From an uncultured Bacilli bacterium (lineage in GTDB: Bacteria; Bacillota_I; Bacilli_A; RF39; UBA660): a DNA stretch of 64,000 nucleotides. Location: NCBI GenBank assembly GCA_947588765.1, contig CANPZG010000003.1, positions 2,032 through 66,031 on the forward strand. Reading direction: 5' to 3'. The notes beneath the pieces were generated by a model. The model did not search any database, was not told the DNA's origin, and worked only from the letters and a program-made list of their open reading frames with translations. Positions 1,330 to 48,955 of this stretch are shown one piece after another. Every line of letters starts with the position of its first letter. Position 1 is the stretch's first letter. The position numbers and the translations under genes are program-made.

Positions 1330-3234
1330 TTAAATTTTTAAAGTATATGGATTTTCAATTGTACCAATACCACCATTCAATATAGCATCATTAGTTATAT
1401 AAAATGTAGGGCGGACTACATATGTGTAACCGCCACTAACACTGTAGTCGACACTACCAGTGCTACGCACAGCAAATGTACCTGAAGGCAAATTAGTTTC
1501 ACTAGTATAATCACATCTTTGAGTTATTAACCATTCCCATAACCCCATATATAACCAGTTACTATCCGTTGTTGAACGATAATCATTGTTTACTTGTTTT
1601 TTTGAGAAACCTCCCGCTGGGTTCCCAAATTTATCTATTTTTGTTCCATCACTTGTATTACCATATGTTCCAGTAAATGGTTTTTTATTCCAATTACTTG
1701 GTGTTGCTCCATATAAATAGTCACTTACATATAGCAATCCTATATTTTCCGGTTCTGTTGTTTTTCGATTAGTTGTTGAATTTGTTCCTATTTCATAATC
1801 ATATACTGATTTTGAGTTTGTTCCTAATGCTATATTATCGAATGTTGCATTATCATTTCCCCATATCCACGTATAAGGTGTTATTAAGCTTCGATATGTT
1901 GAATCTATAGAATTATAATAATTTGTATTTAAATGTATTGTGTTTAATAGTGCAGTTTTCCAATCTGCAGGTGTTGATTCACTTCCGTTTTCTTGCCATC
2001 TATATCTATCCACTTGAGTAAGATTTCCTTTGTATCTATGCGTAAATGCATCTTTTTCGCTGTTAGTTCCAGTTGTTGCGTTATATGAATAGCTCGTGTA
2101 AGAACCATTTGTTTTTGGATCAGCTTGAGATAAATCAGTTGGAGTTGTTGTTCCAGCACCTAATAATTCTTTATTTGCATAATCTGCTTTTACTACTTTT
2201 ATTCCATCATTACCAAATGTTCCTACTATTCTAAATAGATTATCTTTATTACTATTACAATCAGTCCCTAAACATATGTAGTTGTTTACTTTTTCATATG
2301 AACCGCTATAGCGATATGATGAGTCTCCTGCTTCTAATTCTCCTGCTGTTTCTCCCCTGGCTTCATCATTTTCTCCATCATGATATATTAAATTACTTGC
2401 TCCATATACTGATTTGTCATGTAATTGTTGAATACAATCAGCTAATAAACCACCTTCACTACATACATCCATTAAATCATTCGCTATCTTTTCGGCTTGG
2501 ATTATTATTCTTCCATTAAATGTTTTTTTTGTATTTAATTCTTGATCTGTTTCTAAATTTTTAAATGTTACTGTTATATTCCATTCATCTGTCTTTTTAT
2601 GGTCTGTTTCTTTATCTGTTACATTTATTGCTACATCTTCGGCTATTGGATATATTCCTTCTCTTAATTCTGTTATATCATAACTATCATCTGTTTCTCT
2701 TAATGTTGCTTTTGTTAAATTTGGTATTTCTTTATCGAAACTATTTGGTCCAGTTATGGTTAAGAATAACTCTGGTATTGGATTATATCCTTTTGTTAAT
2801 CCATTATAATCTCTATTATTTCCTAATGTTTTATCATATTCGTTCGTAAATACTAAATCTTCATATTCTTCTTCTGGGTCTGTATATGATGAATATTCAA
2901 AATCATTGGCTGTTATTTCTAAATAAACATTATAACTTGCTGTCGCTGTATTTGTACTATTATTGGCTACCAATGTCGCACTTACATTTGTTGAACCCGT
3001 TTTATTTCCACTTGTTTCTGTAAAATTTTGTTGCGTTGCTTTTATTGTTATATCATTACCTTTATTAAAGGTTAGATTATCTACTGTACTTGTTGTGGCA
3101 TTTAAATTTGCTATAGCATTATTTCCTGTTACTGCTTGAAAATAGGCATATGTTGCACCTGCTATTAAAGCTAATAATGTTACTAATGCTATTATCAAAT
3201 ATATTATTCCTTTTCTTTTATTTTTTTCTTCCAT
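1330..3234 (-). CDS. signal-anchored secreted or surface protein, family member 1 (paralogs at 22598-24202 and 38617-39831)
   Basis: Long ORF. The likely start is MEEKNKRK, preceded by AAGGAGAG (the track ORF extends to 3285). It has an N-terminal TM helix ending in ATYAYFQA, the shared motifs YRYSG..NNY.C....LFRIVG and IGLLYVSDY, and a C-terminal VRPTFYI...GTIENPYTL. Confidence 0.8.
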   Translation of the reverse strand: MEEKNKRKGIIYLIIALVTLLALIAGATYAYFQAVTGNNAIANLNATTSTVDNLTFNKGNDITIKATQQNFTETSGNKTGSTNVSATLVANNSTNTATASYNVYLEITANDFEYSSYTDPEEEYEDLVFTNEYDKTLGNNRDYNGLTKGYNPIPELFLTITGPNSFDKEIPNLTKATLRETDDSYDITELREGIYPIAEDVAINVTDKETDHKKTDEWNITVTFKNLETDQELNTKKTFNGRIIIQAEKIANDLMDVCSEGGLLADCIQQLHDKSVYGASNLIYHDGENDEARGETAGELEAGDSSYRYSGSYEKVNNYICLGTDCNSNKDNLFRIVGTFGNDGIKVVKADYANKELLGAGTTTPTDLSQADPKTNGSYTSYSYNATTGTNSEKDAFTHRYKGNLTQVDRYRWQENGSESTPADWKTALLNTIHLNTNYYNSIDSTYRSLITPYTWIWGNDNATFDNIALGTNSKSVYDYEIGTNSTTNRKTTEPENIGLLYVSDYLYGATPSNWNKKPFTGTYGNTSDGTKIDKFGNPAGGFSKKQVNNDYRSTTDSNWLYMGLWEWLITQRCDYTSETNLPSGTFAVRSTGSVDYSVSGGYTYVVRPTFYITNDAILNGGIGTIENPYTLKI

Positions 3235-18878: not shown

Positions 18879-21509
18879 TTATTTATTCTTCTTTTCTAAT
18901 ATTGCAGCTCTAGCAGCAGCAAGTCTGGCAATAGGAACTCGATATGGAGAACAAGATACATAATTAAATCCTAATTTATGACAAAAAGCAATTGAGGCAG
19001 GGTCTCCACCATGTTCACCACAAATACCTAAAGAAATATTTGGTCTAACTTTTCTTGCTTGTGTAGCTGCCATTTCCATTAATTTACCAACACCATCTTC
19101 ATCAATACGACTAAATGGATCAGATTCAAAAATTCTCTTTTCATAATAAGAACCTAGAAATTTACCAGCATCATCACGACTAAAGCCATATGTCATTTGC
19201 GTTAAGTCATTAGTACCAAAGCTAAAGAATTCTGCTTCTTCAGCAATTCTATCGGCTAAAAGAGCTGCTCTTGGGATTTCAATCATTGTTCCAACTTGAT
19301 ATTTAATATCTAAGCCTGATTCTTTAATTAGTTCATCAGCTACTTCGACAACGACATTTTTAACATATTTTAATTCATTAACATCACCAACAAGCGGAAT
19401 CATTATTTCTGGTTCAATAGTTGTACCTTTTTTAGTTACGTTAATTGCTGCTTCAATTACCGCTCTTGTTTGCATTTTAGCTATTTCTGGGTATGTCACT
19501 GCTAAACGACAACCACGATGCCCCATCATTGGATTGAATTCTTTTAGTGATGCAATAACATCTTTTAATTCTTGTTCTTTTTTACCTAAATCTTTCGCAA
19601 GTTCTTTAATTTCTTCATCAGTTTTAGGTAAAAATTCATGTAGAGGTGGATCAAGATAACGTATTATAACTGGATATGGAGCCATAGCTTCAAATAAGCC
19701 TTCAAAGTCTTCTCTTTGATAAGGTAAAATTAATTCTAAAGCTTTTTCTCTTTCTTCCACTGTTGTTGCACAAATCATTTTTCTAAAATTAAATATTCTA
19801 TTCTTTTCAAAAAACATGTGTTCTGTCCGACATAAGCCAATTCCTTCAGCTCCAAAAAGTCTTGCTTGTTTCGCATCTTTTGGAGTATCAGCATTAGTTC
19901 TAATACTTAAAGTTCTTGCTTTATCAGCCCAAGACATAAAGGTTTCAAAATCACCACTTATCGTCGCAGCAACTTTTTCAATTTTTCCTTCATAAACTTT
20001 ACCAGTAGTTCCATCAACAGAAATATAATCACCTTCATGTAAAACTAAACCATCTTTTGTTTTTAAAGTTTTTTCTTCTTCATTTAAAGTAAAGTCTCCT
20101 ACTCCAGATACACAGCAAATACCCATACCACGAGCAACAACGGCCGCATGGCTAGTCATACCACCACGAATAGTAAGTACTCCTTCACTTGAATTCATTC
20201 CTTCAATATCTTCAGGAGATGTTTCTAAACGAACTAAAACTGCTTCTTCACCATTTTTCTTCGCTTCAATAACTTTACTTGATTCAAAATAAATTTTACC
20301 TGAACCAGCCCCAGGTGAAGCCGCCAAACCTTGACCTATAACTTTCTTGGTTTTTAAATCTTTTTCGCTAAATGTAGGATGAAGTAAAGCATCTAATTGT
20401 TTAGGGTCAACCATACATACGGCATCTTCTTCACTAATACGACCTTCTTTAACTAAATCAACCGCAATTTTAACCGCAGCTGTAGCCGTTCTTTTACCAT
20501 TTCTCGTTTGTAAAATGAATAATTTACCATTTTCAATTGTAAATTCCATATCTTGCATATCGTTATAATGATTTTCAAGCTTTTCAGCAATATTAACAAA
20601 TTCTTGATATACTTCTGGCATAACTTTAGCTAAAGTATCAATTTCCGCAGGGGTACGAACACCTGCAACAACATCTTCACCTTGCGCATTAATTAGGTAT
20701 TCGCCAAAAATTTTCTTTTCGCCGGTAGCTGGATTTCTGGTAAATGCTACACCAGTACCAGAGTTATCGTTCGTATTACCATAAACCATTTCTTGAACAT
20801 TAACAGCCGTTCCCCATGAACCTGGAATATCATTTAGTCTTCTGTAATAGATTGCTCTTTCATTATTCCAACTTCTAAATACCGCTTTAACTGCTTCAAT
20901 TAATTGCACAAATGGATCTTGAGGAAATTCTTCACCAGCATTTCTTTTATATTCTTCTTTGAACTTCTTAGTTAAATAAACCATGTCATCTTCATCAAGT
21001 TCAATATCTAATTTTTTACCTTTTTCATTTTTTACTTCATCGATAATTTCTTCAAATTTTTTCTTTGAGTATCCCTTTACAACATCACTAAACATTTGAA
21101 TAAATCTACGATATGAGTCATAAACAAATCTTTTGTTATTACTTCTTTTCGCAAAAGATTCCGCAATTTCATCATTTAAACCTAGATTAAGAATAGTATC
21201 CATCATTCCTGGCATACTTACTCTTGCCCCACTACGGACACTAACTAAAAGGGGATTATCTAAATCACCAAATTTCTTTCCAGTTAATTTTTCTAATTCA
21301 CTTATTTTTGTTTTGATTTCCGTAACAATATTATCGGCAATTTTTTCATTATTGTTATAATATTCGTTACAAGCATCAGTTGTAATGATAAATCCTTGAG
21401 GTACTGGTAAGCCAATATTTGTCATTTCGGCAAGATTAGCACCTTTACCACCAAGTAAATTTTTCATATCTTTGTTTCCTTCATGAAACATATAAACATA
21501 CTTTTCCAT
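18879..21509 (-). CDS. ppdK: pyruvate, phosphate dikinase
   Basis: Full-length PPDK pattern (GGKGANLAEM, the GGMTSHAAVVARG phospho-His loop, GLCRTEHMF, and a C-terminal PEP-utilising TIM barrel). The likely start is MEKYVYMF after GGAGGA. Confidence 0.95.
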   Translation of the reverse strand: MEKYVYMFHEGNKDMKNLLGGKGANLAEMTNIGLPVPQGFIITTDACNEYYNNNEKIADNIVTEIKTKISELEKLTGKKFGDLDNPLLVSVRSGARVSMPGMMDTILNLGLNDEIAESFAKRSNNKRFVYDSYRRFIQMFSDVVKGYSKKKFEEIIDEVKNEKGKKLDIELDEDDMVYLTKKFKEEYKRNAGEEFPQDPFVQLIEAVKAVFRSWNNERAIYYRRLNDIPGSWGTAVNVQEMVYGNTNDNSGTGVAFTRNPATGEKKIFGEYLINAQGEDVVAGVRTPAEIDTLAKVMPEVYQEFVNIAEKLENHYNDMQDMEFTIENGKLFILQTRNGKRTATAAVKIAVDLVKEGRISEEDAVCMVDPKQLDALLHPTFSEKDLKTKKVIGQGLAASPGAGSGKIYFESSKVIEAKKNGEEAVLVRLETSPEDIEGMNSSEGVLTIRGGMTSHAAVVARGMGICCVSGVGDFTLNEEEKTLKTKDGLVLHEGDYISVDGTTGKVYEGKIEKVAATISGDFETFMSWADKARTLSIRTNADTPKDAKQARLFGAEGIGLCRTEHMFFEKNRIFNFRKMICATTVEEREKALELILPYQREDFEGLFEAMAPYPVIIRYLDPPLHEFLPKTDEEIKELAKDLGKKEQELKDVIASLKEFNPMMGHRGCRLAVTYPEIAKMQTRAVIEAAINVTKKGTTIEPEIMIPLVGDVNELKYVKNVVVEVADELIKESGLDIKYQVGTMIEIPRAALLADRIAEEAEFFSFGTNDLTQMTYGFSRDDAGKFLGSYYEKRIFESDPFSRIDEDGVGKLMEMAATQARKVRPNISLGICGEHGGDPASIAFCHKLGFNYVSCSPYRVPIARLAAARAAILEKKNK

Positions 21510-21588
21510 AATATCCTCCAATAATTATTTTATCATGCAATAAAAAAGTAAACAATTAAATTGTTCACTTTTAACACATTTTTACCAT

Positions 21589-34148: not shown

Positions 34149-34223
34149 AGTATCACCAACTATGTTATACCATATAACTTAAGAAAAAATTGTCGAATTA
34201 GGAAGATAAATTAAATTTTTTAA

Positions 34224-34252
34224 TAAAAAAAGTATTAATATAAAATTAATAC
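34224..34252 (-). terminator. intrinsic terminator ending the 35-nt repeat RNA
   Basis: Minus strand: GUAUUAAU-UUUAU-AUUAAUAC followed by UUUUUUUA. Confidence 0.6.
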
Positions 34253-34257
34253 CTAAC

Positions 34258-34336
34258 CTTTTAATCTTCCCTTTTGACGGTTGGGGTTCCCTCTTTTAAT
34301 TTTCCCTGTTAACGGTCGGGGGTTACTTCTGTTAAT
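34258..34336 (-). ncRNA. small RNA with about 2.3 tandem 35-36-nt repeats
   Basis: Plus strand: CTTTTAAT at 34258 and 34293, and CTGTTAAT at 34329. Each unit has a CCC..GACGGTTGGGG-type block. The array is flanked by its own promoter and terminator. Confidence 0.5.
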
Positions 34337-34346
34337 ACAATTTAAT

Positions 34347-34375
34347 ATTTTACAATAAGTAAACATTAATGTCAA
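34347..34375 (-). promoter_or_regulatory. promoter TTGACA-17-TAAAAT for the 35-nt repeat RNA
   Basis: Minus strand: TTGACA at 34375-34370 and TAAAAT at 34352-34347. The -35 starts 1 nt after the stop codon of the small ORF upstream. Confidence 0.6.
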
Positions 34376-34376
34376 T

Positions 34377-34538
34377 TTATTTATCCATTTTTTTCATCAT
34401 TTTATTAGCTTCATCAGCAGCATTATTTAATATTTTATTTACTTTTTCTTGTTTTTTCTTATCCATCATCATATATGCTGCACCACCCATCATTGCTACT
34501 ACGGCCATACCAGCCATTACTTCCATTGCTTTTTTCAA
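34377..34538 (-). CDS. 53-aa small membrane protein ((M)KKAMEVMAGMAVVAMMGGAAYMMMDKKKQEKVNKILNNAADEANKMMKKMDK)
   Basis: AGAGGTG lies 9 nt before a TTG start. The protein has a Met/Gly/Ala-rich helix and a charged tail. It is shorter than any ORF listed in the track. Confidence 0.4.
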   Translation of the reverse strand: MKKAMEVMAGMAVVAMMGGAAYMMMDKKKQEKVNKILNNAADEANKMMKKMDK

Positions 34539-34582
34539 TTTTCTAAACACCTCTAAAAATAGTATGGATTTTATTTTTAGAT

Positions 34583-36760
34583 TTATACATTATAAACTTG
34601 CAGTAATTTTTCTTTTAAACTAGTCTTGCGATTATTAGCATAGTTATTTTTAACGGCATTAACAAATGATTGAACTTCCCCAACCATCGTTAATGATTTT
34701 TTAGCTCTAGATACTCCCGTATAAACCAATTTATTATAAAGCATTTTGTAATAATTATGACAAACTGGGAAGATAACATGGTCAAATTCACTACCTTGAC
34801 TCTTATGAATGGTTATTGCATAGGCATGTTTTATTTGTTTTAAATCTTTCTTTTCATAAACAACAACATTACCATCAAAATTAATTTTTATTTTATTAGC
34901 CACGATACTTTCAATATAACCAATATCACCATTAAAAACATTATGGTCTAGGTCATTAACTAATTGTAATACTTTATCATTTTCCCGATAGATAACATCG
35001 CCATAAATAATTTCGGCTTTACTTCTTTTACTAGGGTTATATATATTTTGTAAAATTACATTTAAATTATCTATGCCATTTTCACCCTTATACATTGGCA
35101 CTAATACTTGCATACTTTTTTCATCGATATTCTTTTTGCGACTTATTTGGATAATTTCTTCGATTGTTTTCTTGATATCACTCGCTGGAGTTTGAAAGAA
35201 AGCAAAGTCATCCTTTTTCGTTAAAAAGTCTTCACTTAAATCAACATTTTTTATTTCTTTAGCTAGATATGGAATATAAGAGTTAGAACTTTGGCGATAA
35301 ATTATATTTAAAGGAGCATAATTAAATAAATCACTACTTATTAAATCATTTAAAACATAGCCAGGACCAACACTAGGGAGTTGGAAAGTATCGCCCACTA
35401 AAATTAATTTTACATTAATATTAATCCCACTTAATAAAGCATAAAATAAACTAACATCAATCATAGATACTTCATCAACTATAATTAATTTATGCGGAGT
35501 TTTATTTTCTTCATTATAGAAAAAATTATTTCGATCTTTATTCCATTTTAAATAACGGTGAATAGTATATGCTGGTAAATTAGTCGACATCGCCATCTTT
35601 TTACTAGCTCTACCTGTTGGAGCTAAAAGAGCAATAGTTTCCATAATATCATAAGGGGACAAGCGATATTCTTCTTTATATAAAGCCACAATCGCATTAA
35701 TAATTGTTGTTTTCCCAGTTCCTGGACCTCCAGAAATAATAGTAACATTATTATTTAAAGCACTAATAATAGCATTTTTTTGATCATCATTATAAGTAAT
35801 ACCTAATCGTTTTTCTAAATTAGCAAGTTTTTCTTCCAACGCAGAAATTTTAGTTAAAGGCATACTATCAATTATTTTTAAATTACGAGCTATATTACTT
35901 TCCGCTTCATAATATTTTTTTAAATAATATCTTTTATTTTCTTGAATAACTTTTCCTTGGTCCACTAAATTAGCTAATTTTTCTTCTAAAATTTCTTCTT
36001 CTAAATAAATATTAAATTCTTTTTGTAAATAAATAATTATTTCCTCCGTGAAAGAATAGGTATCTCCTAAAGAAGAAGTTAAAAGCTCCATGGCCTCAAT
36101 TATGCAAGCATCAGTTCTAATATCATTATCACCATAGTTTTGCATGTATATGCTATCAACTCTTTTAAAATCAATTAATTCTTTGATATCATAAAAATCT
36201 TCATTTTTTATTTCTAATATTCTGTCTTTAAATCGATTATATATTTTGGAACATTCTTCAATAGTAAATCCTAGATTTTGGAATTCTAAAATAATATCAC
36301 TACTTTTAGAAAAATTAATTAAGGAGTTATATATTTTTTCGGCTTTAGACTCACTCATACCTTCAATACATAATAAATTATCTTTACTTTCTTTTATTTT
36401 ATCTAAAGTCTCTTCCCCATAATAATCAACTATCTTCTTAGCCGTTTTTTCGCCACAAGAAGCAATAAAATTACTAGCTAAGAATTCAATAATAGCTTCT
36501 TTTGTTGTCGGTTTATCAATTTCAAAACGGGTAAAACGATATTGTTTACCAAACTTTTCATTATTGACAAATTCCCCATATAAAATAATATTTAAATCAA
36601 TTTTAACTTCGGTTAAATTACCAGTTACGGTTATGGTTTTATTTAAATACTCTTTTGCTTCTTCATCATTAGTGTCTTTAACACGAAAAAGAGCAACAAC
36701 ATAACCATTGTCTTCATTATAGTAGATAGTATTGCGAATTTTTCCTTTTATATAGTTCAT
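34583..36760 (-). CDS. recD2: ATP-dependent RecD-like DNA helicase (RecD2/YrrC type)
   Basis: SF1 helicase motifs (ISGGPGTGKTT, LIIVDEVSMID, VGDTFQLPSVGPG, TIHKSQGSEF, YTGVSRAK) and an N-terminal HhH region. Confidence 0.9.
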   Translation of the reverse strand: MNYIKGKIRNTIYYNEDNGYVVALFRVKDTNDEEAKEYLNKTITVTGNLTEVKIDLNIILYGEFVNNEKFGKQYRFTRFEIDKPTTKEAIIEFLASNFIASCGEKTAKKIVDYYGEETLDKIKESKDNLLCIEGMSESKAEKIYNSLINFSKSSDIILEFQNLGFTIEECSKIYNRFKDRILEIKNEDFYDIKELIDFKRVDSIYMQNYGDNDIRTDACIIEAMELLTSSLGDTYSFTEEIIIYLQKEFNIYLEEEILEEKLANLVDQGKVIQENKRYYLKKYYEAESNIARNLKIIDSMPLTKISALEEKLANLEKRLGITYNDDQKNAIISALNNNVTIISGGPGTGKTTIINAIVALYKEEYRLSPYDIMETIALLAPTGRASKKMAMSTNLPAYTIHRYLKWNKDRNNFFYNEENKTPHKLIIVDEVSMIDVSLFYALLSGININVKLILVGDTFQLPSVGPGYVLNDLISSDLFNYAPLNIIYRQSSNSYIPYLAKEIKNVDLSEDFLTKKDDFAFFQTPASDIKKTIEEIIQISRKKNIDEKSMQVLVPMYKGENGIDNLNVILQNIYNPSKRSKAEIIYGDVIYRENDKVLQLVNDLDHNVFNGDIGYIESIVANKIKINFDGNVVVYEKKDLKQIKHAYAITIHKSQGSEFDHVIFPVCHNYYKMLYNKLVYTGVSRAKKSLTMVGEVQSFVNAVKNNYANNRKTSLKEKLLQVYNV

Positions 36761-38616: not shown

Positions 38617-39831
38617 CTAAATGTCTAATAAAACATAGGGATTTTCTTTCGTTCCATTTCCAGTTGCGGATATATTTTTAATAATATTAATAACTGGTCT
38701 AATCCCTTTAGATTGATTAGCATTAGTGTTAAATGATAAAGCCCCATTTACTTCCACGATATATGGGAAGTAACCACTACTAGTTTTCTTAGCACTCGTC
38801 ATCGTATAATAATCCGTTTTTATATCCTCATTATATAAGTAATATTCTTTATTATCATCCGTGCTCGCTCCAGCCATAACAACTTCATCAGCAGAAAGTA
38901 ACCCAATATTAGTGGTTACAACAGTTCCCAAGCAAGAATTATTTGGAATATAATTTTTATTTAAACGATTATAAGCTGCATAATATTCACTACCTTCATC
39001 TATCACTAAATCATTACAAAAATTATGATTAGCTATTTTAGAAGAATAACTTTTTAAATATACAGTGTACCAATCATTTAAAGAACTTTGAATTTGGGAA
39101 CCATCAAATTCATACTTATCACCAGAGGCATAACTACTATTCCCTTCAATTAAATTATTAAGAACTATTTTTACCGAACCATCCTCATTTATCTTAACAA
39201 TACGCCATAAGTTATCGGCGAATGTTACATAATTATTCGTGATATTACCCCGATAGTAATAAACTATGCCATCTTCTGTTTCATTTTTAATTAATCCTTC
39301 ATTAGATGAAGCAATTTCTTTAAAAGATGTTGTTGGATTATCTAAAATATTACTATTATCTTTAATGATATCCGCGAAAGTTGAACTATCTTTTGAACCC
39401 TTAGCTACAATTATTTCCCCGTGATAACTTTCTTTACCGGATGTTATTTCTAATTCATAAGCCAAAGTAGTATTGGCTGCTATTTTAACTTCACTTACCA
39501 CAATTGAAGATATTAAATCATTAGAAATATTTAAATCATCATCAATTCCTTTTAAGGTATATTTTTCTTTAGAAGCATACACATTAGCTAATTTTATATA
39601 AAAAGATTCTTCTTCAGTACTATTATTTGTAACCATAAATTTTAAAGTTTTATTTTTTTTATTACTAAAATCATTCCCATTTTGATAATTAATAGTTAAA
39701 GCCTCATCAGCAATAACTAAAGCTTTTTCATAAAAATATCCCATATAAATATGATAGGTTACTCCTAAAGCTAAACAACCTAGTATTAATATAAATAGAA
39801 TAAATAAAGTAGACTTATATCTTAACCTCAA
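38617..39831 (-). CDS. signal-anchored secreted or surface protein, family member 3 (short form)
   Basis: TTG start, a TM helix ending in VTYHIYMG, then YYYRGNITNNYVTFADNLWRIVKI, IGLLSADEV, and a C-terminal IRPVINI...GTKENPYVL. A TTGACA-17-TATACT promoter lies at about 39885-39857. Confidence 0.75.
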   Translation of the reverse strand: MRLRYKSTLFILFILILGCLALGVTYHIYMGYFYEKALVIADEALTINYQNGNDFSNKKNKTLKFMVTNNSTEEESFYIKLANVYASKEKYTLKGIDDDLNISNDLISSIVVSEVKIAANTTLAYELEITSGKESYHGEIIVAKGSKDSSTFADIIKDNSNILDNPTTSFKEIASSNEGLIKNETEDGIVYYYRGNITNNYVTFADNLWRIVKINEDGSVKIVLNNLIEGNSSYASGDKYEFDGSQIQSSLNDWYTVYLKSYSSKIANHNFCNDLVIDEGSEYYAAYNRLNKNYIPNNSCLGTVVTTNIGLLSADEVVMAGASTDDNKEYYLYNEDIKTDYYTMTSAKKTSSGYFPYIVEVNGALSFNTNANQSKGIRPVINIIKNISATGNGTKENPYVLLDI

Positions 39832-39929
39832 CTACATCATTCCTAACTTAATTAAAGTATACAAAAAAGGTGTATTTTTGTCAATTGTCTTTACCAAAAT
39901 AAAAACAGATAAAAGGGCATATAATTCTA

Positions 39930-40559
39930 TTATCTGTTTTTTCTTCTTACTCTTTTAGGAAATTCGTCATCTTTATTTAAACTATATTCATTTTGTTTTT
40001 CTGATTCTATTAATTTTTCTTTTACTTCAGGAATGGATGTTAATTCTCCACTTTCTTCGATAAAATGGTATTTCTCTTTTAACATATTTATTTCATCGAT
40101 TAACTTTGGTTCTCTTTCCTTTAATTTAGCCAATGTTTTTTCATAACCATTTATTAATTCTTTGCGAATTTTTTTAGTACCATAAGTATCTATACTATCT
40201 GCCTTAAACATTGCGCATAAAGATGCTGGTATGACTAGTGCTACACATATCATAAATTCATCTGCAGGATTAAAGCCTTTAAGAAATGACAAACCCAAAA
40301 ACATTATTATAGTTAGAGCAACAAAAACTAAAAACAAATAATTATCTTTTTTGGCTGCTTTATCATCTTTATTTATTTTTGCTATTTTTTGCATTAAATC
40401 ATTCTTTTCATTCATTAAAGTTTCTAATTCATCTTCTTTAAGCAAAATATTTTTTATTTCACCATCTAAAATATCATTTGTTTTAATTAACCGAATTTCA
40501 CCTTCTTCATTAGTAACTATCCATTCATTAGGATTATTTTGATAAACGCTTTTATTCAT
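39930..40559 (-). CDS. hypothetical 2-TM protein with flanking coiled-coil segments
   Basis: AAGGAGAG RBS and two central hydrophobic helices. It is the last gene of the AAA+ operon, and a hairpin terminator lies at about 39900-39936. Confidence 0.7.
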   Translation of the reverse strand: MNKSVYQNNPNEWIVTNEEGEIRLIKTNDILDGEIKNILLKEDELETLMNEKNDLMQKIAKINKDDKAAKKDNYLFLVFVALTIIMFLGLSFLKGFNPADEFMICVALVIPASLCAMFKADSIDTYGTKKIRKELINGYEKTLAKLKEREPKLIDEINMLKEKYHFIEESGELTSIPEVKEKLIESEKQNEYSLNKDDEFPKRVRRKNR

Positions 40560-40598
40560 ATAAAATCACTCTCCTTAAATAATATAACATACTTCTAT

Positions 40599-42080
40599 TT
40601 ATTTCACAATTGAATTAGTTTTTATTAATTTTAAAGTAGAATTTCTTTTTAAATTATTTTTTATATTTCTAATTTTTTCTTCTTTTCGAGAATCATTTAT
40701 ATCCGGATTAACATTGATTGCATAAATAATATCTTCAATCGTTAACTCGTTTTTTTCACTATAGACAGCTTTCGCAAAAGCTAATTTTAAAATATCTAAG
40801 ACTAAATCAGGATTCTTTTTCGAATTAGTTACGCCATCTTTCGTAGTTACATAAGAATTAGTAGTTAAATTAACTAACTCATTCCATAAGATATTTCTTT
40901 CGGCATCCGTAAAATTAAATTCGATTTGATATTTATTTATTAATTCTTCTAAAACATAATCTAAAATTTTAAATAAATCATTTTTAGCTGGTTCTTTTAT
41001 TTCAATTACTTTAAAACGACGATCAAAAGCATTATCTGTCTTTATATATTTAGTGTATTCTTCTTTTGTGGTATCCCCAATTATTCTTATATTACCATTT
41101 GCTAAATAAGGTTTTAAAGTATTAACAAAATCTAGACCAGAATCTTCAGTTTTACCTAAGCCAACCATAGAATGCATCTCTTCAATATATAAAACTATAT
41201 CTTGATTATTTTGGACTTCTCTAATAATTTCTTCTACTCTATTTTCAAACTCACCCCGATATTTAGTACCACTTATTAAAGCATTAATATTTAACTTAAT
41301 AATTTCTAAGTTTTTCAAAAAACTAGGAACATTTCCTTCTTTGATGTCTTTAGCTAAAGAATAAACAATACTAGTTTTACCAACGCCAGCATCTCCCACC
41401 AAAAGAAGAGATTTTTCTTGTAACAATAAATTAATTTTAATTTCTTCAAGTTCTTTTTCTCGACCAATCGCTGGATTACGACTATAATCTTTTTGAGTTA
41501 ATATCTCACTATATTTACTTAAAGTATTACTTGCTCCTTCGGGAATGCGATATCTAATATTTAACCTATTTATTTTTTCACTAACTACGCCAGCGAGATA
41601 AGTTTTTATTAAATTATAGGTAGGAATATAATCACTAAAGGTATCTTTAAATAACTTAATTATGATATTAGAATGAGTTAACTCTTCACAAAATAAATTA
41701 TATAAAATTAATTCTTCAAAAAGGTTTTCTTTTCGTATAACTTCTAAAGTATTAGGTAACTTACTTAAATAAATTAAACGGGATTTAAAAACTTGGAAAT
41801 ATTTATGGCGATTAATCATTGATACATCATCAAGGCTACCTTTAATACCATAAAAATTCGCTGGATTAAGTTTATTACAAAAAGCTTTATTCATCATTTC
41901 CGAAAACCCATAGTTAGTATTTAAACCCGCAAGAAATAAAGAAATATAGACCTTTTCTGTATCTTGATATTTATTACCTTTTTTATCTAATGCTTGATAA
42001 TTACGCATCGCACATATGATATAATTACGCATTCTCGCATCAATTTTTGCAAAATATGTTAAATAATTATATTCTTCCAT
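40599..42080 (-). CDS. single-domain Clp-like AAA+ ATPase (ClpA/B/C D1-type), paralog 2
   Basis: GREKELEEI..LLL, Walker A GDAGVGKTS, RYRGEFE, Walker B-like LYIEEMH, IGDTT and FDRRFK. The likely start is MEEYNYL after AGGTGG (the track ORF extends to 42101). Confidence 0.8.
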   Translation of the reverse strand: MEEYNYLTYFAKIDARMRNYIICAMRNYQALDKKGNKYQDTEKVYISLFLAGLNTNYGFSEMMNKAFCNKLNPANFYGIKGSLDDVSMINRHKYFQVFKSRLIYLSKLPNTLEVIRKENLFEELILYNLFCEELTHSNIIIKLFKDTFSDYIPTYNLIKTYLAGVVSEKINRLNIRYRIPEGASNTLSKYSEILTQKDYSRNPAIGREKELEEIKINLLLQEKSLLLVGDAGVGKTSIVYSLAKDIKEGNVPSFLKNLEIIKLNINALISGTKYRGEFENRVEEIIREVQNNQDIVLYIEEMHSMVGLGKTEDSGLDFVNTLKPYLANGNIRIIGDTTKEEYTKYIKTDNAFDRRFKVIEIKEPAKNDLFKILDYVLEELINKYQIEFNFTDAERNILWNELVNLTTNSYVTTKDGVTNSKKNPDLVLDILKLAFAKAVYSEKNELTIEDIIYAINVNPDINDSRKEEKIRNIKNNLKRNSTLKLIKTNSIVK

Positions 42081-42087
42081 AACCCAC

Positions 42088-44115
42088 CTACTTTGTTCCA
42101 AAATCTTGAGGAATCCGAATTAATTTATGTTTACTTGGAACTACTTTAGCCTCAAAAAGATAATTTAATTTATTAATAATGGTCTTTTTTCGACTTTCAT
42201 ATATTCCTTCAGCATTCATTATTCCTTCATATATATCACTTTTTTCTACTTCTTCGTGATTATAGTATTTAGCATACGCAAAAATAAGTTTTAAAACATC
42301 TAAAACTAAATCGGGATTATTTTTGGTATCATTTATTCCATCTTCTTTAATCATAATCATACCCTTGGTTAAATTAATTAATTCTTGAAATATTAATTGC
42401 TTTCTTTCCGGGTTACCAAAAGAGATATGATATTGTTCTTCTAAAACATCACAAACACTATTAATAATCTTTAAAAGTGATACATCATTTGGTTCTTTAA
42501 TAGTTATTGTTTTAAACCGACGACGAAAAGCATTATCCTCTAAAATATACTTATGATATTCTTCTATTGTAGTATCGCCAATAATTCTAATTTTACCATC
42601 TGATAAGTACGATTTTAAAATATTAGCAAAATCAAGAGGGGCACCTTCAGAAGTGCCTAAACCAATTGTTGTATGCATTTCTTCTAAATACATAATTGTA
42701 TCAGGATTTTTTATTAATTCTTCAATTAAGTTTTTTACTTTTTCTTCAAAATCTCCCCGATATCTAGTTCCTGCAAGTAAATTATTGATATCTACTTTAA
42801 GAATTTTGATATCTTTTAAATAATTATTAATATTTCCTTGTTGGATATTATAAGCTAAACCTTTAACAATACTGGTTTTACCTACTCCTGCATTACCAAT
42901 TAAAAGAATTGATTTTTCCGGCAATAATAAATCAATTTCTAACTCTTTTAATTCACTATCTCTACCTACAGCTGGATTATATGAAAAAGTTTCTTCATTT
43001 AAATAGTAACCATAGGTTAACAACTTCGAAGTTTTACCCTTTTTAGAATTAGCATTAGGAGATGTTTTAACTTTCGATTTTTCCTCTGCTATCTTTTCTG
43101 CTTTTAATTCCCTTATTTCTAATTTTTCTTCTTCAAAGTTATTTTTTTTAATTTCTTCTTGATAATCAACTTTACAATACAAAGCATTCATAAATTTAAT
43201 ATAACTAGTATCAACTAATATTTGATCAGCACTATATTTTTCATGCCATTTGTCTTTAAATACATATTGATAAATATTAATTAAAATTTCTTTATATTTT
43301 TGGGTATTAAAAATATAATAAAAATAAACAATTGGTTTTAATTTTTGTAAATCAACTTGCCATTCTAAAGTCTTAATTAATCCTTCGTATTTAGGCCAAA
43401 CTTGTTCTTTATATTCTTTAGTTACAGAATCTTTTATATCAATATTAAAATAATCTAATACTAATTTAGCATTTTCACTATCCGTAATATTTAAACCCAT
43501 ATTAGCCAAATTTTTACTAGCATAGCATACAATACTTATAAAAAGAGAATTCAAGATATTATATGAATCATTATATAAAGTATTTTTTTTAGTTAAAGCT
43601 TGATAAACACACATTGCCTTATTAATAATAGATATATTAGAAATATTCATTTTAGTTATATATTTTTCATAATTATTTTGTGTTTTTCCTTTTTCTTTAG
43701 GACTATTAACTAAATTTAAAAATTTTTTAACTATTTCTTCCTTTTGTAAATCACGTAACAAATGATTAATATCAATACCATTCAAACTAGAAAGACTTGA
43801 AAATTCTAAAAATGTGTCAACATAATAACCATATTCTTTAAATTCTTCATCTATAAAATTAATAGGTAAAACATTTTTATAACCAATATAAGAAAATATA
43901 TTATCAATTTCTTTATCCGTAAAAGGACAATTAGTTAAAAGATTACGATTATTTAAAATAGCCAAAAATAAACTCAAATATCTTACTTTTTTAGGACTTA
44001 TATAACCCATATTAGTAGGACTATCAGCCATAAGAAGTTCATTATACCAGACAAAATCTATGAATACTTTTTTCATATTTTCATCAGCTTGCATAAATAT
44101 TTTTTCGTAATCCAT
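42088..44115 (-). CDS. single-domain Clp-like AAA+ ATPase (D1-type) with a long unique N-terminal region, paralog 1
   Basis: GRDSELKEL, Walker A GNAGVGKTS, RYRGDFE, Walker B-like MYLEEMH, IGDTT and FRRRFK. There is no second AAA module. Confidence 0.8.
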   Translation of the reverse strand: MDYEKIFMQADENMKKVFIDFVWYNELLMADSPTNMGYISPKKVRYLSLFLAILNNRNLLTNCPFTDKEIDNIFSYIGYKNVLPINFIDEEFKEYGYYVDTFLEFSSLSSLNGIDINHLLRDLQKEEIVKKFLNLVNSPKEKGKTQNNYEKYITKMNISNISIINKAMCVYQALTKKNTLYNDSYNILNSLFISIVCYASKNLANMGLNITDSENAKLVLDYFNIDIKDSVTKEYKEQVWPKYEGLIKTLEWQVDLQKLKPIVYFYYIFNTQKYKEILINIYQYVFKDKWHEKYSADQILVDTSYIKFMNALYCKVDYQEEIKKNNFEEEKLEIRELKAEKIAEEKSKVKTSPNANSKKGKTSKLLTYGYYLNEETFSYNPAVGRDSELKELEIDLLLPEKSILLIGNAGVGKTSIVKGLAYNIQQGNINNYLKDIKILKVDINNLLAGTRYRGDFEEKVKNLIEELIKNPDTIMYLEEMHTTIGLGTSEGAPLDFANILKSYLSDGKIRIIGDTTIEEYHKYILEDNAFRRRFKTITIKEPNDVSLLKIINSVCDVLEEQYHISFGNPERKQLIFQELINLTKGMIMIKEDGINDTKNNPDLVLDVLKLIFAYAKYYNHEEVEKSDIYEGIMNAEGIYESRKKTIINKLNYLFEAKVVPSKHKLIRIPQDFGTK

Positions 44116-44195
44116 CTAAATCCCTTCCTTAATATGTAGTTATTATCTTATCATAATTTAATAAAAAGTCAAATAAAAAACCAGTTTGAAACTGA

Positions 44196-44384
44196 TTATT
44201 TACTTTCTTCTTCGACTTTAATTACTTCTTCACCTTTGTAGTATCCACATTTAGTACATGCACGATGTGGTCTTAAAGTTGCTCCACACTTAGGACAAGT
44301 AGTTAATGCTCCAACTTCTTTTTTCAAATGGGTTCTCCGCATTCTTTTTTTAGTTTTACTAGTTCTTCTAAAAGGAACTGCCAT
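44196..44384 (-). CDS. rpmF: 50S ribosomal protein L32
   Basis: [17 protein letters not shown] and the CPKCG...C.KCG zinc ribbon. Confidence 0.95.
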
Positions 44385-44426
44385 ATTTATTCACCACCTT
44401 TAAGTCTATTTTTTTTATTTTAGATT

Positions 44427-47583: not shown

Positions 47584-48264
47584 TTAATTTATTGTTCTCT
47601 TACGTGGTTCATAATACAAAGTATCTTTGGTTGCTTTATGAAAATGTAAATCCAGTTTACTCTTATCAGCATTAAAGAATTCTAATGTATGTTTAACATC
47701 CGTTACCTTTATAGTATCTACTAACTCTTTGGCAAAAATTTTTTCAAAGCGTTCTTTATAGTAAAGAGTTCCTCTTTGATTTTTATTGTAATCCGCGAGA
47801 ATAATTAATTTATCAAGTTCTTTTAGCATTTGATTTCTTTCCTGAGTATTATCAGTTACTAAATTATTTATTTTTTCATTTTTATAAGCAATTAATTTTT
47901 CATAATCAACTTTTTCTTCAAACTTAGCATATAATAGACTTTGAATATTACCATTTAAAATGTTATCAATGATAGTCACCAATTTAGGATATTCATAAAA
48001 ATCATAACTATAACGATGTGCATTAGGTAAATGAATATTTTTCCGATAAACATCCACTTCTTCTAATTCAACAACATTACGATTTTCCCCATTAACAAAA
48101 TAATATTCTAAAGGAGAAAAAGTTAATACCGCTGTTTCATGATAAATAGTTGAACATTTTTCAATTAATTCTTTTTTTAATTGAATTAATTCTAATTTAT
48201 CATATGTTATTAAATATTTTTCAAAAACATCACCATTTTGAACTAAAAAATATTGTTGTTCCAT
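47584..48264 (-). CDS. hypothetical protein (226 aa), paralog of the 48272-48955 gene
   Basis: Shared motifs are QNGD..E.YLI.., EL..L..E..EKC, YEKLI and ERFEKI. Confidence 0.7.
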   Translation of the reverse strand: MEQQYFLVQNGDVFEKYLITYDKLELIQLKKELIEKCSTIYHETAVLTFSPLEYYFVNGENRNVVELEEVDVYRKNIHLPNAHRYSYDFYEYPKLVTIIDNILNGNIQSLLYAKFEEKVDYEKLIAYKNEKINNLVTDNTQERNQMLKELDKLIILADYNKNQRGTLYYKERFEKIFAKELVDTIKVTDVKHTLEFFNADKSKLDLHFHKATKDTLYYEPRKRTIN

Positions 48265-48271
48265 ATCCCAC

Positions 48272-48955
48272 CTATTTATTATCTTTAGGTTTATATACTA
48301 AAGTTTTACCTTCATAATCAAAACCTAAATCTTTTATATCTAAATTGCAAAAACTTATACAATCTTTAAAATCAGATAATTTAATTTTACTTATTAACTT
48401 TAGCTTAACAATTTTTTCAAATCTTTCTTGAAAGGCTATAGTACCTAATTGATTTTCGGAAGCTTTAGCTTCTTCTACCCAAGTTTGTAAAACTTCTAAA
48501 GCTTTTATTTTTTCTTTCGTATTCATATTATCAATCTTATCAACTTCCATATAAGCATCATTAATTAGTTTTTCATAATTAGGTTTTTCATTAAATTTAA
48601 TTAAACCAAAGATGCGCTTATCTCCATTTAATAAATCATCAATTAAAACTACTTCTTCCGGATATAAATGTAATGTGTAACTATATTTATAATAAGTCAC
48701 ATCTGGTGCTGTTCCTTTGGAATCAACTTTGGAAACTCCTAAATTCCAAACTTTAGAAAAACTCCTATCATCAAATTCCATTGTTTGAGGATTTTTAGAA
48801 AATTCACCAATTTGATTAGGGATTATTCGGCAACATTTTTCTCTCATTTCATCTCTTAGTTTTCTTAATTCACTTTCCGCAAAAGAAATCAAATACTCTT
48901 CTAAAAAATCTCCGTTTTGTTTATAATAATACATTACTTTCATTTCTTTTTTCAT
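48272..48955 (-). CDS. hypothetical protein (227 aa), paralog of the 47584-48264 gene
   Basis: See its partner. The two genes are tandem with a 7-nt gap. Confidence 0.7.
   Translation of the reverse strand: MKKEMKVMYYYKQNGDFLEEYLISFAESELRKLRDEMREKCCRIIPNQIGEFSKNPQTMEFDDRSFSKVWNLGVSKVDSKGTAPDVTYYKYSYTLHLYPEEVVLIDDLLNGDKRIFGLIKFNEKPNYEKLINDAYMEVDKIDNMNTKEKIKALEVLQTWVEEAKASENQLGTIAFQERFEKIVKLKLISKIKLSDFKDCISFCNLDIKDLGFDYEGKTLVYKPKDNK

Follow-up and report, generated by a model that had tools for sequence, protein, structure and literature searches.

Gene organization of the locus

We analysed a 64,000-nucleotide stretch of DNA from an uncultured Bacilli bacterium (hereafter the window; contig CANPZG010000003.1), in which three consecutive genes encode two Clp-like AAA+ ATPases, each with a single module of the D1 type, and a small membrane protein. 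Judged from sequence comparisons, the ATPases, encoded by a translationally coupled pair of genes, are best assigned to a D1-only Clp-like family that has no name, and within it to a subclade with a distinctive active site (termed here EE/GDTT); a lineage-specific membrane protein accompanies them, and a function for the trio is inferred below. The features of the locus are as follows:

42088-44115, minus strand: gene 1, 675 amino acids (aa); long family-specific N-terminal region and a single Clp D1-type AAA+ module (residues ~380-675)
40599-42080, minus strand: gene 2, 493 aa; helical family N-domain of ~185 aa and a single D1-type AAA+ module with lid
39930-40559, minus strand: gene 3, 209 aa; N-terminal region, hairpin of two transmembrane (TM) segments, and K/E-rich C-terminal region
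44174-44197, minus strand: weak hairpin and U-run 3' of rpmF (-5.2 kcal/mol, z -2.0)
44145-44172, minus strand: promoter-like TTGACT-16-TAAGAT with TG extension, 5' of gene 1
42084-42089, minus strand: Shine-Dalgarno sequence AGGTGG of gene 2, overlapping the TAG stop of gene 1
39896-39941, minus strand: terminator-like hairpin and U-run (-11.7 kcal/mol, z -3.2), whose 5' arm takes in the stop codon of gene 3

The window has 26% G+C and is coded almost entirely on the minus strand. Its source is a rabbit-gut bacterium, and the runs of one rabbit gut metagenome sample carry 89-98% of the sampled words of the locus. Upstream of gene 1 lies rpmF (44384-44196), and the hairpin behind it marks the upstream boundary, which is possibly leaky. 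The extended -10 block TATGATAAGATAA is found both in the window (~44146-44158) and 5' of the gene for P0243, a ~50%-identical homologue (locus L184, ~1490-1505), which suggests that the promoter of gene 1 is conserved. The position of the gene 2 Shine-Dalgarno sequence, overlapping the stop codon of gene 1, suggests translational coupling, as an earlier reading of this DNA made from the letters alone (hereafter the sequence-only reading) had proposed. For gene 2 the list of open reading frames (ORFs) gives a TTG start at 42101; the ATG at 42080, which yields the 493-aa product, is plausible because it is preceded by AGGTGG and because the orthologue in a related strain (L001) also has 493 aa. 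Gene 3 follows after a spacer of 39 nucleotides (nt) and has its own Shine-Dalgarno sequence, and the next gene beyond it, for a 404-aa protein, is preceded by a strong promoter-like TTGACA-17-TATACT. The tight coupling of genes 1 and 2, the 39-nt gap and a terminator placed only after gene 3 argue that genes 1-3 form one minus-strand block, resembling a transcription unit, between two hairpins; the coordinates and boundaries that the sequence-only reading gave for such a unit, running from the rpmF terminator to a downstream hairpin, are correct.

Two ATPases with a single D1-type module

Both ATPases contain exactly one Walker A motif and, likewise, one AAA domain. Their translations read GR..EL, G(N/D)AGVGKTS, (R/K)YRG(D/E)FE, IGDTT and RRF, with YLEEMH (gene 1) or YIEEMH (gene 2) as the Walker B motif. 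The NCBIfam models of ClpA, ClpB and ClpV match the D1 part only (profile positions ~130-375) and with scores of 164-201 bits, against cut-offs of 885-1232: genes 1 and 2 reach 188 and 201 bits with ClpA (cut-off 993), and 164 and 178 bits with ClpB (cut-off 1232). Sequence searches of the PDB and Foldseek searches with two AlphaFold2 (AF2) models returned matches only to D1 of ClpC, ClpC1, ClpB, ClpA and Hsp104, the Foldseek D1 alignments covering 275-300 columns at a root-mean-square deviation (rmsd) of ~3 Å. No D2 module was found in gene 1 or gene 2, the NCBIfam and PDB alignments reaching D1 only, and the ClpP-docking pattern [ILVM]G[FL] occurs in neither protein besides the normal xGLG that follows Walker B, with the exception of a lone MGL at residue 206 of gene 1, in the N-terminal region and outside any AAA module. 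The claim that these are two D1-only Clp-like proteins, lacking a second AAA module and a ClpP-docking region, thus agrees with the motif and profile checks.

No insertion resembling an M-domain was found: the AF2 model gives gene 2 a compact lid with five helices (residues 366-488), and the alignment to ClpC1 stops at the lid. This model, calculated from an alignment of 49 sequences (predicted local distance difference test score, pLDDT, 87; in an earlier model from seven sequences residues 52-184 had mostly pLDDT <50), comprises a helical N-domain, the D1 core and the lid without insertion. Genes 1 and 2 share 47% identity over the ATPase and lid, while their N-terminal regions are unalignable by BLAST.

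The D1-only family

For gene 1 a word-indexed search retrieved just three orthologues, for gene 2 a single one of full length, and besides these a few odd relatives. An exhaustive profile search, for which the best 150 representatives of 50%-identity clusters were listed (all with E <= 1e-83), reveals a family of at least 150 such clusters, hosted mainly by uncultured low-GC gut Bacilli and Clostridia. Among the 150 listed representatives 139 are single-module proteins with a median length of 518 aa; the other 11 are fusions of at least two D1 modules of the family type. P0123 is a clear fusion, in which Walker A, Walker B and the pore loop are kept in both halves; its second half has a complete RRF pair of Arg fingers and its first half SRF.

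A family hidden Markov model (HMM), the training alignment of which included genes 1 and 2, distinguishes the two groups cleanly: members score >=350 bits, whereas ordinary Clp genes, more than 80 of them, reach <=321 bits; the L001 orthologues of genes 1 and 2 score ~434 bits each. In an alignment of 137 members the Walker A Lys (K235) is present in all 137, the pore-loop Tyr in 109, the Walker B Glu in 136 and the sensor-1 Thr in 135; the two Arg fingers are retained in 125 and 137, and the Asn and Pro of the lid motif in 124 and 135. This motif, NPDLxLxIL..FAxA, is conserved and specific to the family, which is further characterised by a helical N-domain of ~150-250 aa. The similarity extends beyond the core, e.g. 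P0004 is 36% identical to gene 2 across the whole of the latter. These comparisons show that genes 1 and 2 are members of an unnamed family of single-module, D1-only Clp-like proteins. In the NCBI database the entry for one member, MBQ7140412.1, reads just [quoted passage not shown], a name that implies partnership with ClpP, for which no basis was found in the sequence. D1-only Clp proteins were not found described in the part of the literature that was searched, which does not prove novelty.

Searches of other collections added little. A scan of a genome collection with the family alignment gave ordinary two-ring Clp genes at 76 of 80 loci, because the patterns chosen are common to all Clp genes, and new members only at L013, L016 and L029. 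In viral contigs no family member was found at the family threshold among the 80 best loci retrieved. A metagenome scan with a DNA pattern for M-H..IGDTT..E[YF] produced six matches, all by chance.

The similarity of genes 1 and 2 to proteins outside the family, confined to D1 of ClpA, ClpB and ClpC, is what one would also see if an ordinary clpC or clpB gene had been split and pseudogenised and they were its fragments, an outcome that the sequence-only reading had named as one of two that would overturn it. We regard this explanation as refuted: D1 is present in both genes and D2 in neither, each possesses an N-domain of its own along with a complete lid, the orthologues are intact and under strong purifying selection (see below), and the same architecture recurs in the 139 listed single-module clusters.

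The paired EE and IGDTT substitutions

In the 137-member alignment the Walker B motif reads hhhhEE in six sequences, all six of which have IGDTT, and the Asp of IGDTT occurs in none of the 130 sequences with the usual DE; P0321 (EK, ATAT), a lone degenerate sequence, is an exception to both patterns and stands apart. The EE observed in both proteins by the sequence-only reading is therefore real, although it is not private to this operon and instead forms one half of a subclade signature coupled to IGDTT. The six EE sequences form one clade (91 of 100 neighbour-joining bootstraps) despite a core identity of only 40-53%; the paired change has a single origin and was retained over deep divergence. 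No member of this clade has lost the catalytic Glu, the Walker A Lys, the sensor-1 Thr or either Arg finger, and the pore-loop Tyr is present in five of six members, P0243 having Leu. Genes 1 and 2 themselves are not sister paralogues within it (5 of 100 bootstraps), so the pair would be old or assembled rather than the product of a fresh duplication.

The Mg2+-positioning Asp of Walker B is replaced not only in the two paralogues but throughout the subclade, which raises the possibility that these proteins are pseudo-ATPases, i.e. that EE/GDTT disables hydrolysis and that they bind ATP as scaffolds or regulators instead of acting as motors; moreover, no natural EE variant of the AAA+ Walker B was found described in the literature searched, although this is not proof of novelty. 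We consider such a role quite improbable. The other catalytic residues persist across a clade with 40-53% identity, with the pore-loop Tyr in all but one of its six members, and the only truly degenerate member, P0321, lies apart. The substitution is conservative and always goes hand in hand with a new Asp two positions ahead of sensor-1, which looks compensatory for the longer Glu side chain in Walker B. That the paired change and nearly every other catalytic residue have been kept over such divergence favours a functioning active site, perhaps a re-tuned one, over a decayed one.

The N-terminal regions

Searches of Pfam with the isolated N-terminal regions of genes 1 and 2 gave no match. Clp_N and AAA_lid_9 are absent from the 25 Pfam families shown for 49 family members scanned singly, the least frequent of these 25 being matched by 2 of the 49, and a comparison of the family N-domain (74 sequences) with 80 Clp_N domains (PF02861) by hhalign gave a probability of only 8%. 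The helices reminiscent of Clp_N, which the sequence-only reading had described in both N-termini, therefore find no support at the level of sequence. In the AF2 model the N-domain of gene 2 is an all-helical bundle; in whole-chain Foldseek searches the chains of ClpC, ClpB and Hsp104 that bear an N-domain ranked first (460-511 columns), but with an rmsd of ~25 Å.

The N-terminal region of gene 1 is about twice as long as usual in the family, and its first 81 residues correspond to the beginning of the family's N-domain (hhalign probability 82%). An internal duplication, hinted at by MAFFT, was considered and rejected: the second copy reached a probability of 31% in hhalign, and the two putative copies compared with each other gave nothing. 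NCBIfam, PADLOC, PHROGs and Pfam, searched with the N-terminal regions, the lids, gene 3 and the neighbours of the relatives, yielded nothing beyond generic AAA matches.

The membrane protein

The product of gene 3 has two hydrophobic segments (residues 74-94 and 103-118) between K/E-rich helical regions. Residues 1-56 are conserved and heptad-like from residue 34, and the C-terminal region ends in a basic tail. By the positive-inside rule both termini should be inside, with both helical arms in the cytoplasm. The two membrane-spanning segments of the sequence-only reading are thus retained, while the coiled coils that it placed on both sides are supported by a crude heptad test on the N-terminal side only.

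Close relatives of gene 3 were found in the same clade only, with the addition of P0398 (50% identity). More distantly, a subgroup of gene-3-like proteins of 255-263 aa shares the N-terminal ~60 residues and the hairpin; one of its members occurs in L008, and two of the three others adjoin an integrase or TnpV. P0401 gave a weak match to a membrane protein in PHROGs, and no relative of gene 3 was found in the viral contigs.

Selection and hypervariable patches

The window can be compared with L001 (~95% DNA identity; L002 and L003 represent the same strain as L001) over 17.8 kb, in which nearly all 200-nt bins show 91-100% identity. Only two deep troughs interrupt this background, and three other bins lie at 86-89%. 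The troughs are:

43336-44046, minus strand: hypervariable patch of gene 1, residues 24-260; nt identity 54-62% in the core and 77-84% at the edges, with ~95% in the flanks
40182-40391, minus strand: hypervariable patch of gene 3, residues 57-126, including the TM hairpin; 61% nt identity to L001

The numbers of nonsynonymous (dN) and synonymous (dS) substitutions per site are 0.38 and 0.56 in the gene 1 patch and 0.54 and 0.69 in the gene 3 patch, compared with background values of 0.005-0.013 for dN and 0.13-0.26 for dS; in residues 127-209 of gene 3 dN is only 0.015. The AAA part of gene 1 has a dN of 0.029 and a dS of 0.27. Conservation at the locus is highest in gene 2, between the two patches (dN 0.005, dS 0.13, protein 99% identical). 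With dN far below dS in gene 2 and in the AAA part of gene 1, both are working genes under purifying selection, which, together with their family membership, speaks against the pseudogene explanation discussed above.

In the flanks the tree is ((window, L001), L007), and the topology switches in the gene 1 patch: there L001 and L007 retain their usual 75-88% identity, while the allele of the window is ~57% identical to both. This switch suggests that the lineage of the window, with P0001, carries an allele of gene 1 that was replaced or has diverged very rapidly. The hairpin of gene 3 exists in three differing versions around conserved cytoplasmic parts. Blocks of 100% identity to L001 within the ~95% background (34800-35000, 35600-35800, 41600-41800 and 44200-44400) point to frequent recombination between these strains. 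The conservation of gene 2 between two variable patches suggests a division of labour in which the motor subunit stays constant while the subunit for specificity and the partner in the membrane vary.

Such localised, extreme divergence (dN/dS ~0.7-0.8 in a 95%-identical background, with an allele replaced in the lineage of the window) is also what one could expect of a conflict or defence system, in which the N-terminal region of gene 1 would sense a phage or competitor protein, the ATPases would transduce the signal, and the hairpin of gene 3 would act as a membrane-damaging effector. The distant gene-3-like proteins next to an integrase or TnpV and the weak PHROG match of P0401 are compatible with this explanation, which we nevertheless consider unlikely. 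PADLOC gives only weak, generic P-loop matches (TRIP13, PtuA and IetA; best E 2.6e-6, <=25 bits), and PADLOC-DB v2 nothing for gene 3; the locus belongs to the syntenic core genome, gene 2 is very strongly constrained, and among the viral contigs neither a family member (80 best loci) nor a relative of gene 3 was found. The sequence-only reading had left the choice between a membrane-associated remodelling system and a defence-type ATPase system; the former is our best guess for the trio, and the latter gains no positive support from PADLOC, the viral contigs or the core context.

Conservation of the trio and genomic neighbourhoods

The full order mutL-yceD-rpmF-gene 1-gene 2-gene 3-404 aa-173 aa-miaB-like-recD2 is found in L001, so that the sequence-only reading escapes the refutation that it had set for a trio confined to a single genome. 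In L007 (~85% identity) gene 1 is present, and the contig breaks off after the first part of gene 2. The frame of mutL-yceD-rpmF on one side and miaB-like-recD2 on the other is syntenic in three genomes, and adjacency to rpmF persists even at ~50% protein identity: P0258, a ~50%-identical member of the EE/GDTT subclade, is encoded by a single gene right after rpmF, followed by a terminator and then by the start of an hrcA-type promoter. Another member of the subclade, P0243, is encoded directly upstream of an hrcA-grpE promoter that bears the CIRCE operator (controlling inverted repeat of chaperone expression). In L184 this promoter (2966-3078), just downstream of the D1-only gene, contains a near-consensus CIRCE, TTAGCACTG-N9-GAGTGCTAA, and a second, imperfect one; a 29-nt stretch that includes this imperfect element also forms the end of contig L183 (1784-1867). 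No CIRCE was found in the window.

Members of the family with the usual DE in Walker B lie singly beside efp and a gene with a SpoIIIAH domain (L004), beside holA and a pilin-like gene (L009), or beside ftsK and ftsY (L029). The neighbourhood of the family is thus of a housekeeping kind and, as distant members lie singly in differing contexts, it is not conserved family-wide.

This distribution bears on the explanation that the ATPases are general cytosolic chaperones or disaggregases of the heat-shock network, slimmed relatives of ClpB or ClpC, with genes 1 and 2 forming redundant, separate homo-hexamers and gene 3 being unrelated. Two distant EE/GDTT genes lie directly upstream of a CIRCE-controlled hrcA(-grpE) promoter, singletons of the family are found among housekeeping genes (efp, holA, ftsK, ftsY), the D1 core is nearest to those of ClpC, ClpB and ClpA, and gene-3-like proteins occur without ATPase neighbours. 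On the other hand, D2 is the main threading motor in ClpB and the M-domain serves for coupling to DnaK, and genes 1 and 2 have neither. The D1-only genes are located upstream, not downstream, of the CIRCE operator, and the window has no such operator at all. In addition, the coupling, the short spacer and the position of the terminator favour one unit that includes gene 3, and both hypervariable patches fall in the same operon, in gene 1 and gene 3. A general chaperone is accordingly possible, if somewhat unlikely.

Several observations were made on neighbouring genes. In L004 (10001-12304) the gene for P0004 is located between efp and the gene with the SpoIIIAH domain, on the contig of a spore-former, with a 51-aa remnant resembling an ABC transporter in between; in Bacillus subtilis the spoIIIA operon follows efp. 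In L016 (8927-9319) the D1-only singleton is followed by an overlapping ORF of 130 aa with three TM segments, and in L029 (9076-11319) by a gene for an FtsK-like membrane translocase; at both loci ordinary ClpC-like genes occur within a few kb of the D1-only gene. The 404-aa protein next to gene 3 (38617-39831, minus strand) is anchored N-terminally and has a weakly DUF6273-like C-terminus, whose motif IRP...GNGTKENPY.L recurs in a 457-aa ORF (L184, 91-1464) directly upstream of the gene for P0243; a broader similarity of these two proteins was rejected, the shared stretch being only 29 aa long (E 7e-4). Further along the window two adjacent paralogous ORFs (47584-48264 and 48272-48955, minus strand; 226 and 227 aa) have clearly similar N-termini, and their orthologues in L001 have no Pfam family on record. 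Finally, L001 has a gene for a DDE-type transposase (19933-21552) between recD2 and the next gene, which is absent from the window (~34150-34580), where the alignment breaks.

A possible role of the trio

We tentatively favour, at something short of an even chance, the interpretation that genes 1 and 2 are anciently diverged, functional paralogues that make up a ClpP-independent pair of ring unfoldases with a lineage-specific membrane partner. Because Walker A, the Walker B Glu, the pore-loop Tyr, the sensor-1 Thr and the double Arg finger are all conserved, the two proteins may be subunits of a hexameric unfoldase or remodeller that threads its substrate independently of ClpP. They would cooperate, either mixed in one ring or as a stack of two rings, since the genes are translationally coupled and since other members of the family fuse two such modules. 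In this arrangement gene 2 would provide the conserved motor subunit and gene 1, whose N-terminal region is enlarged and evolves fast, the subunit that confers specificity for substrates or partners; the hairpin protein encoded by gene 3 would tether the ATPase to the membrane by its two cytoplasmic helical arms or, alternatively, would itself be a client. The position of distant subclade members directly upstream of CIRCE-controlled hrcA gives the family a context with a flavour of proteostasis, which agrees with this reading.

A number of observations weigh against an unfoldase pair with a dedicated membrane partner. Co-conservation of the trio is shallow and limited to one narrow clade: apart from the window it is complete in one other strain (L001), while the more distant subclade members in L183 and L184 are single genes, also where the locus is rpmF-adjacent, so that the trio as a conserved system, which the sequence-only reading asked about, is weakly supported. 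The gene-3-like member in L008 lies 1.2 kb upstream of a fused double-D1 gene, with ORFs on the opposite strand between them, and the other three members of its subgroup are on short contigs without a D1 ATPase; as L008 is not one operon and its fellow members lack ATPase neighbours, we have downgraded it as an independent link between ATPase and membrane protein. The exchange of Asp for Glu in Walker B could lower or abolish hydrolysis. Hetero-oligomerisation is not implied by recent duplication, genes 1 and 2 being non-sister sequences. The co-variation of the two patches is seen in just two haplotypes, in a region that is a recombination mosaic, and the runs that carry the locus are DNA runs only.

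A bolder variant of the unfoldase interpretation, to which we assign a small chance, is that the D1-only family constitutes an unrecognised single-ring class of the Hsp100 type in which some lineages have re-invented the two-module machine, through fused D1 modules or through coupled paralogues, and that the fast-evolving N-terminal region of gene 1 and the hairpin of gene 3, diverging along with it, are a matched, strain-specific recognition pair that aims a membrane-tethered unfoldase at variable targets of the envelope, phages or competitors.

Relationship to known AAA+ systems

The closest comparison is with the class I Clp/Hsp100 proteins (ClpC, ClpA, ClpB, ClpE, ClpL and ClpV), with which genes 1 and 2 share a D1 of ~30-45% identity over ~180-200 residues and the motifs Walker A, a KYRGEFE-type pore loop, hhhh(D/E)E-H, IGxTT and RRF. 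They deviate from the D1 signature of that class in the change of the Walker B Asp to Glu and in the A to D change in IGxTT, and they differ from it in having no D2, no M-domain insertion, no ClpP-docking loop and no Clp_N or AAA_lid_9 detectable by sequence; they fall far below every NCBIfam equivalog cut-off (885-1900) and have an N-domain and a lid motif of their own. Hsp100/Clp unfoldases are known as two-ring machines or as single-ring machines of the D2 type, so that a widespread family with a D1 ring only, and with an N-domain and lid of its own, would represent a new architecture among them and a natural test of what a lone D1 ring can do.

To the D1-only family typified by MBQ7140412.1 genes 1 and 2 match over their full length, including the N-domain and the lid. 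They are set apart from most of its members by belonging to the EE/GDTT subclade and by lying side by side as coupled genes, accompanied by a gene for a dedicated membrane protein. The paired change of Walker B D to E and of IGATT to IGDTT offers a natural active-site variant open to mutagenesis, and the local hypervariability of genes 1 and 3 a handle for finding partners or substrates.

Cdc48/p97, NSF and Pex1/Pex6 are two-tier AAA+ machines built from like modules or hetero-oligomeric AAA+ pairs. The proteins described here have no specific sequence relationship to them beyond the AAA fold; the common theme is the pairing of classical-clade AAA modules, which in the D1-only family takes the form either of fusion (P0123 and 10 other representatives) or of adjacent, coupled genes. 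The D1-D1 fusions and the coupled pair of paralogues thus bear on the origin of two-tier AAA+ machines.

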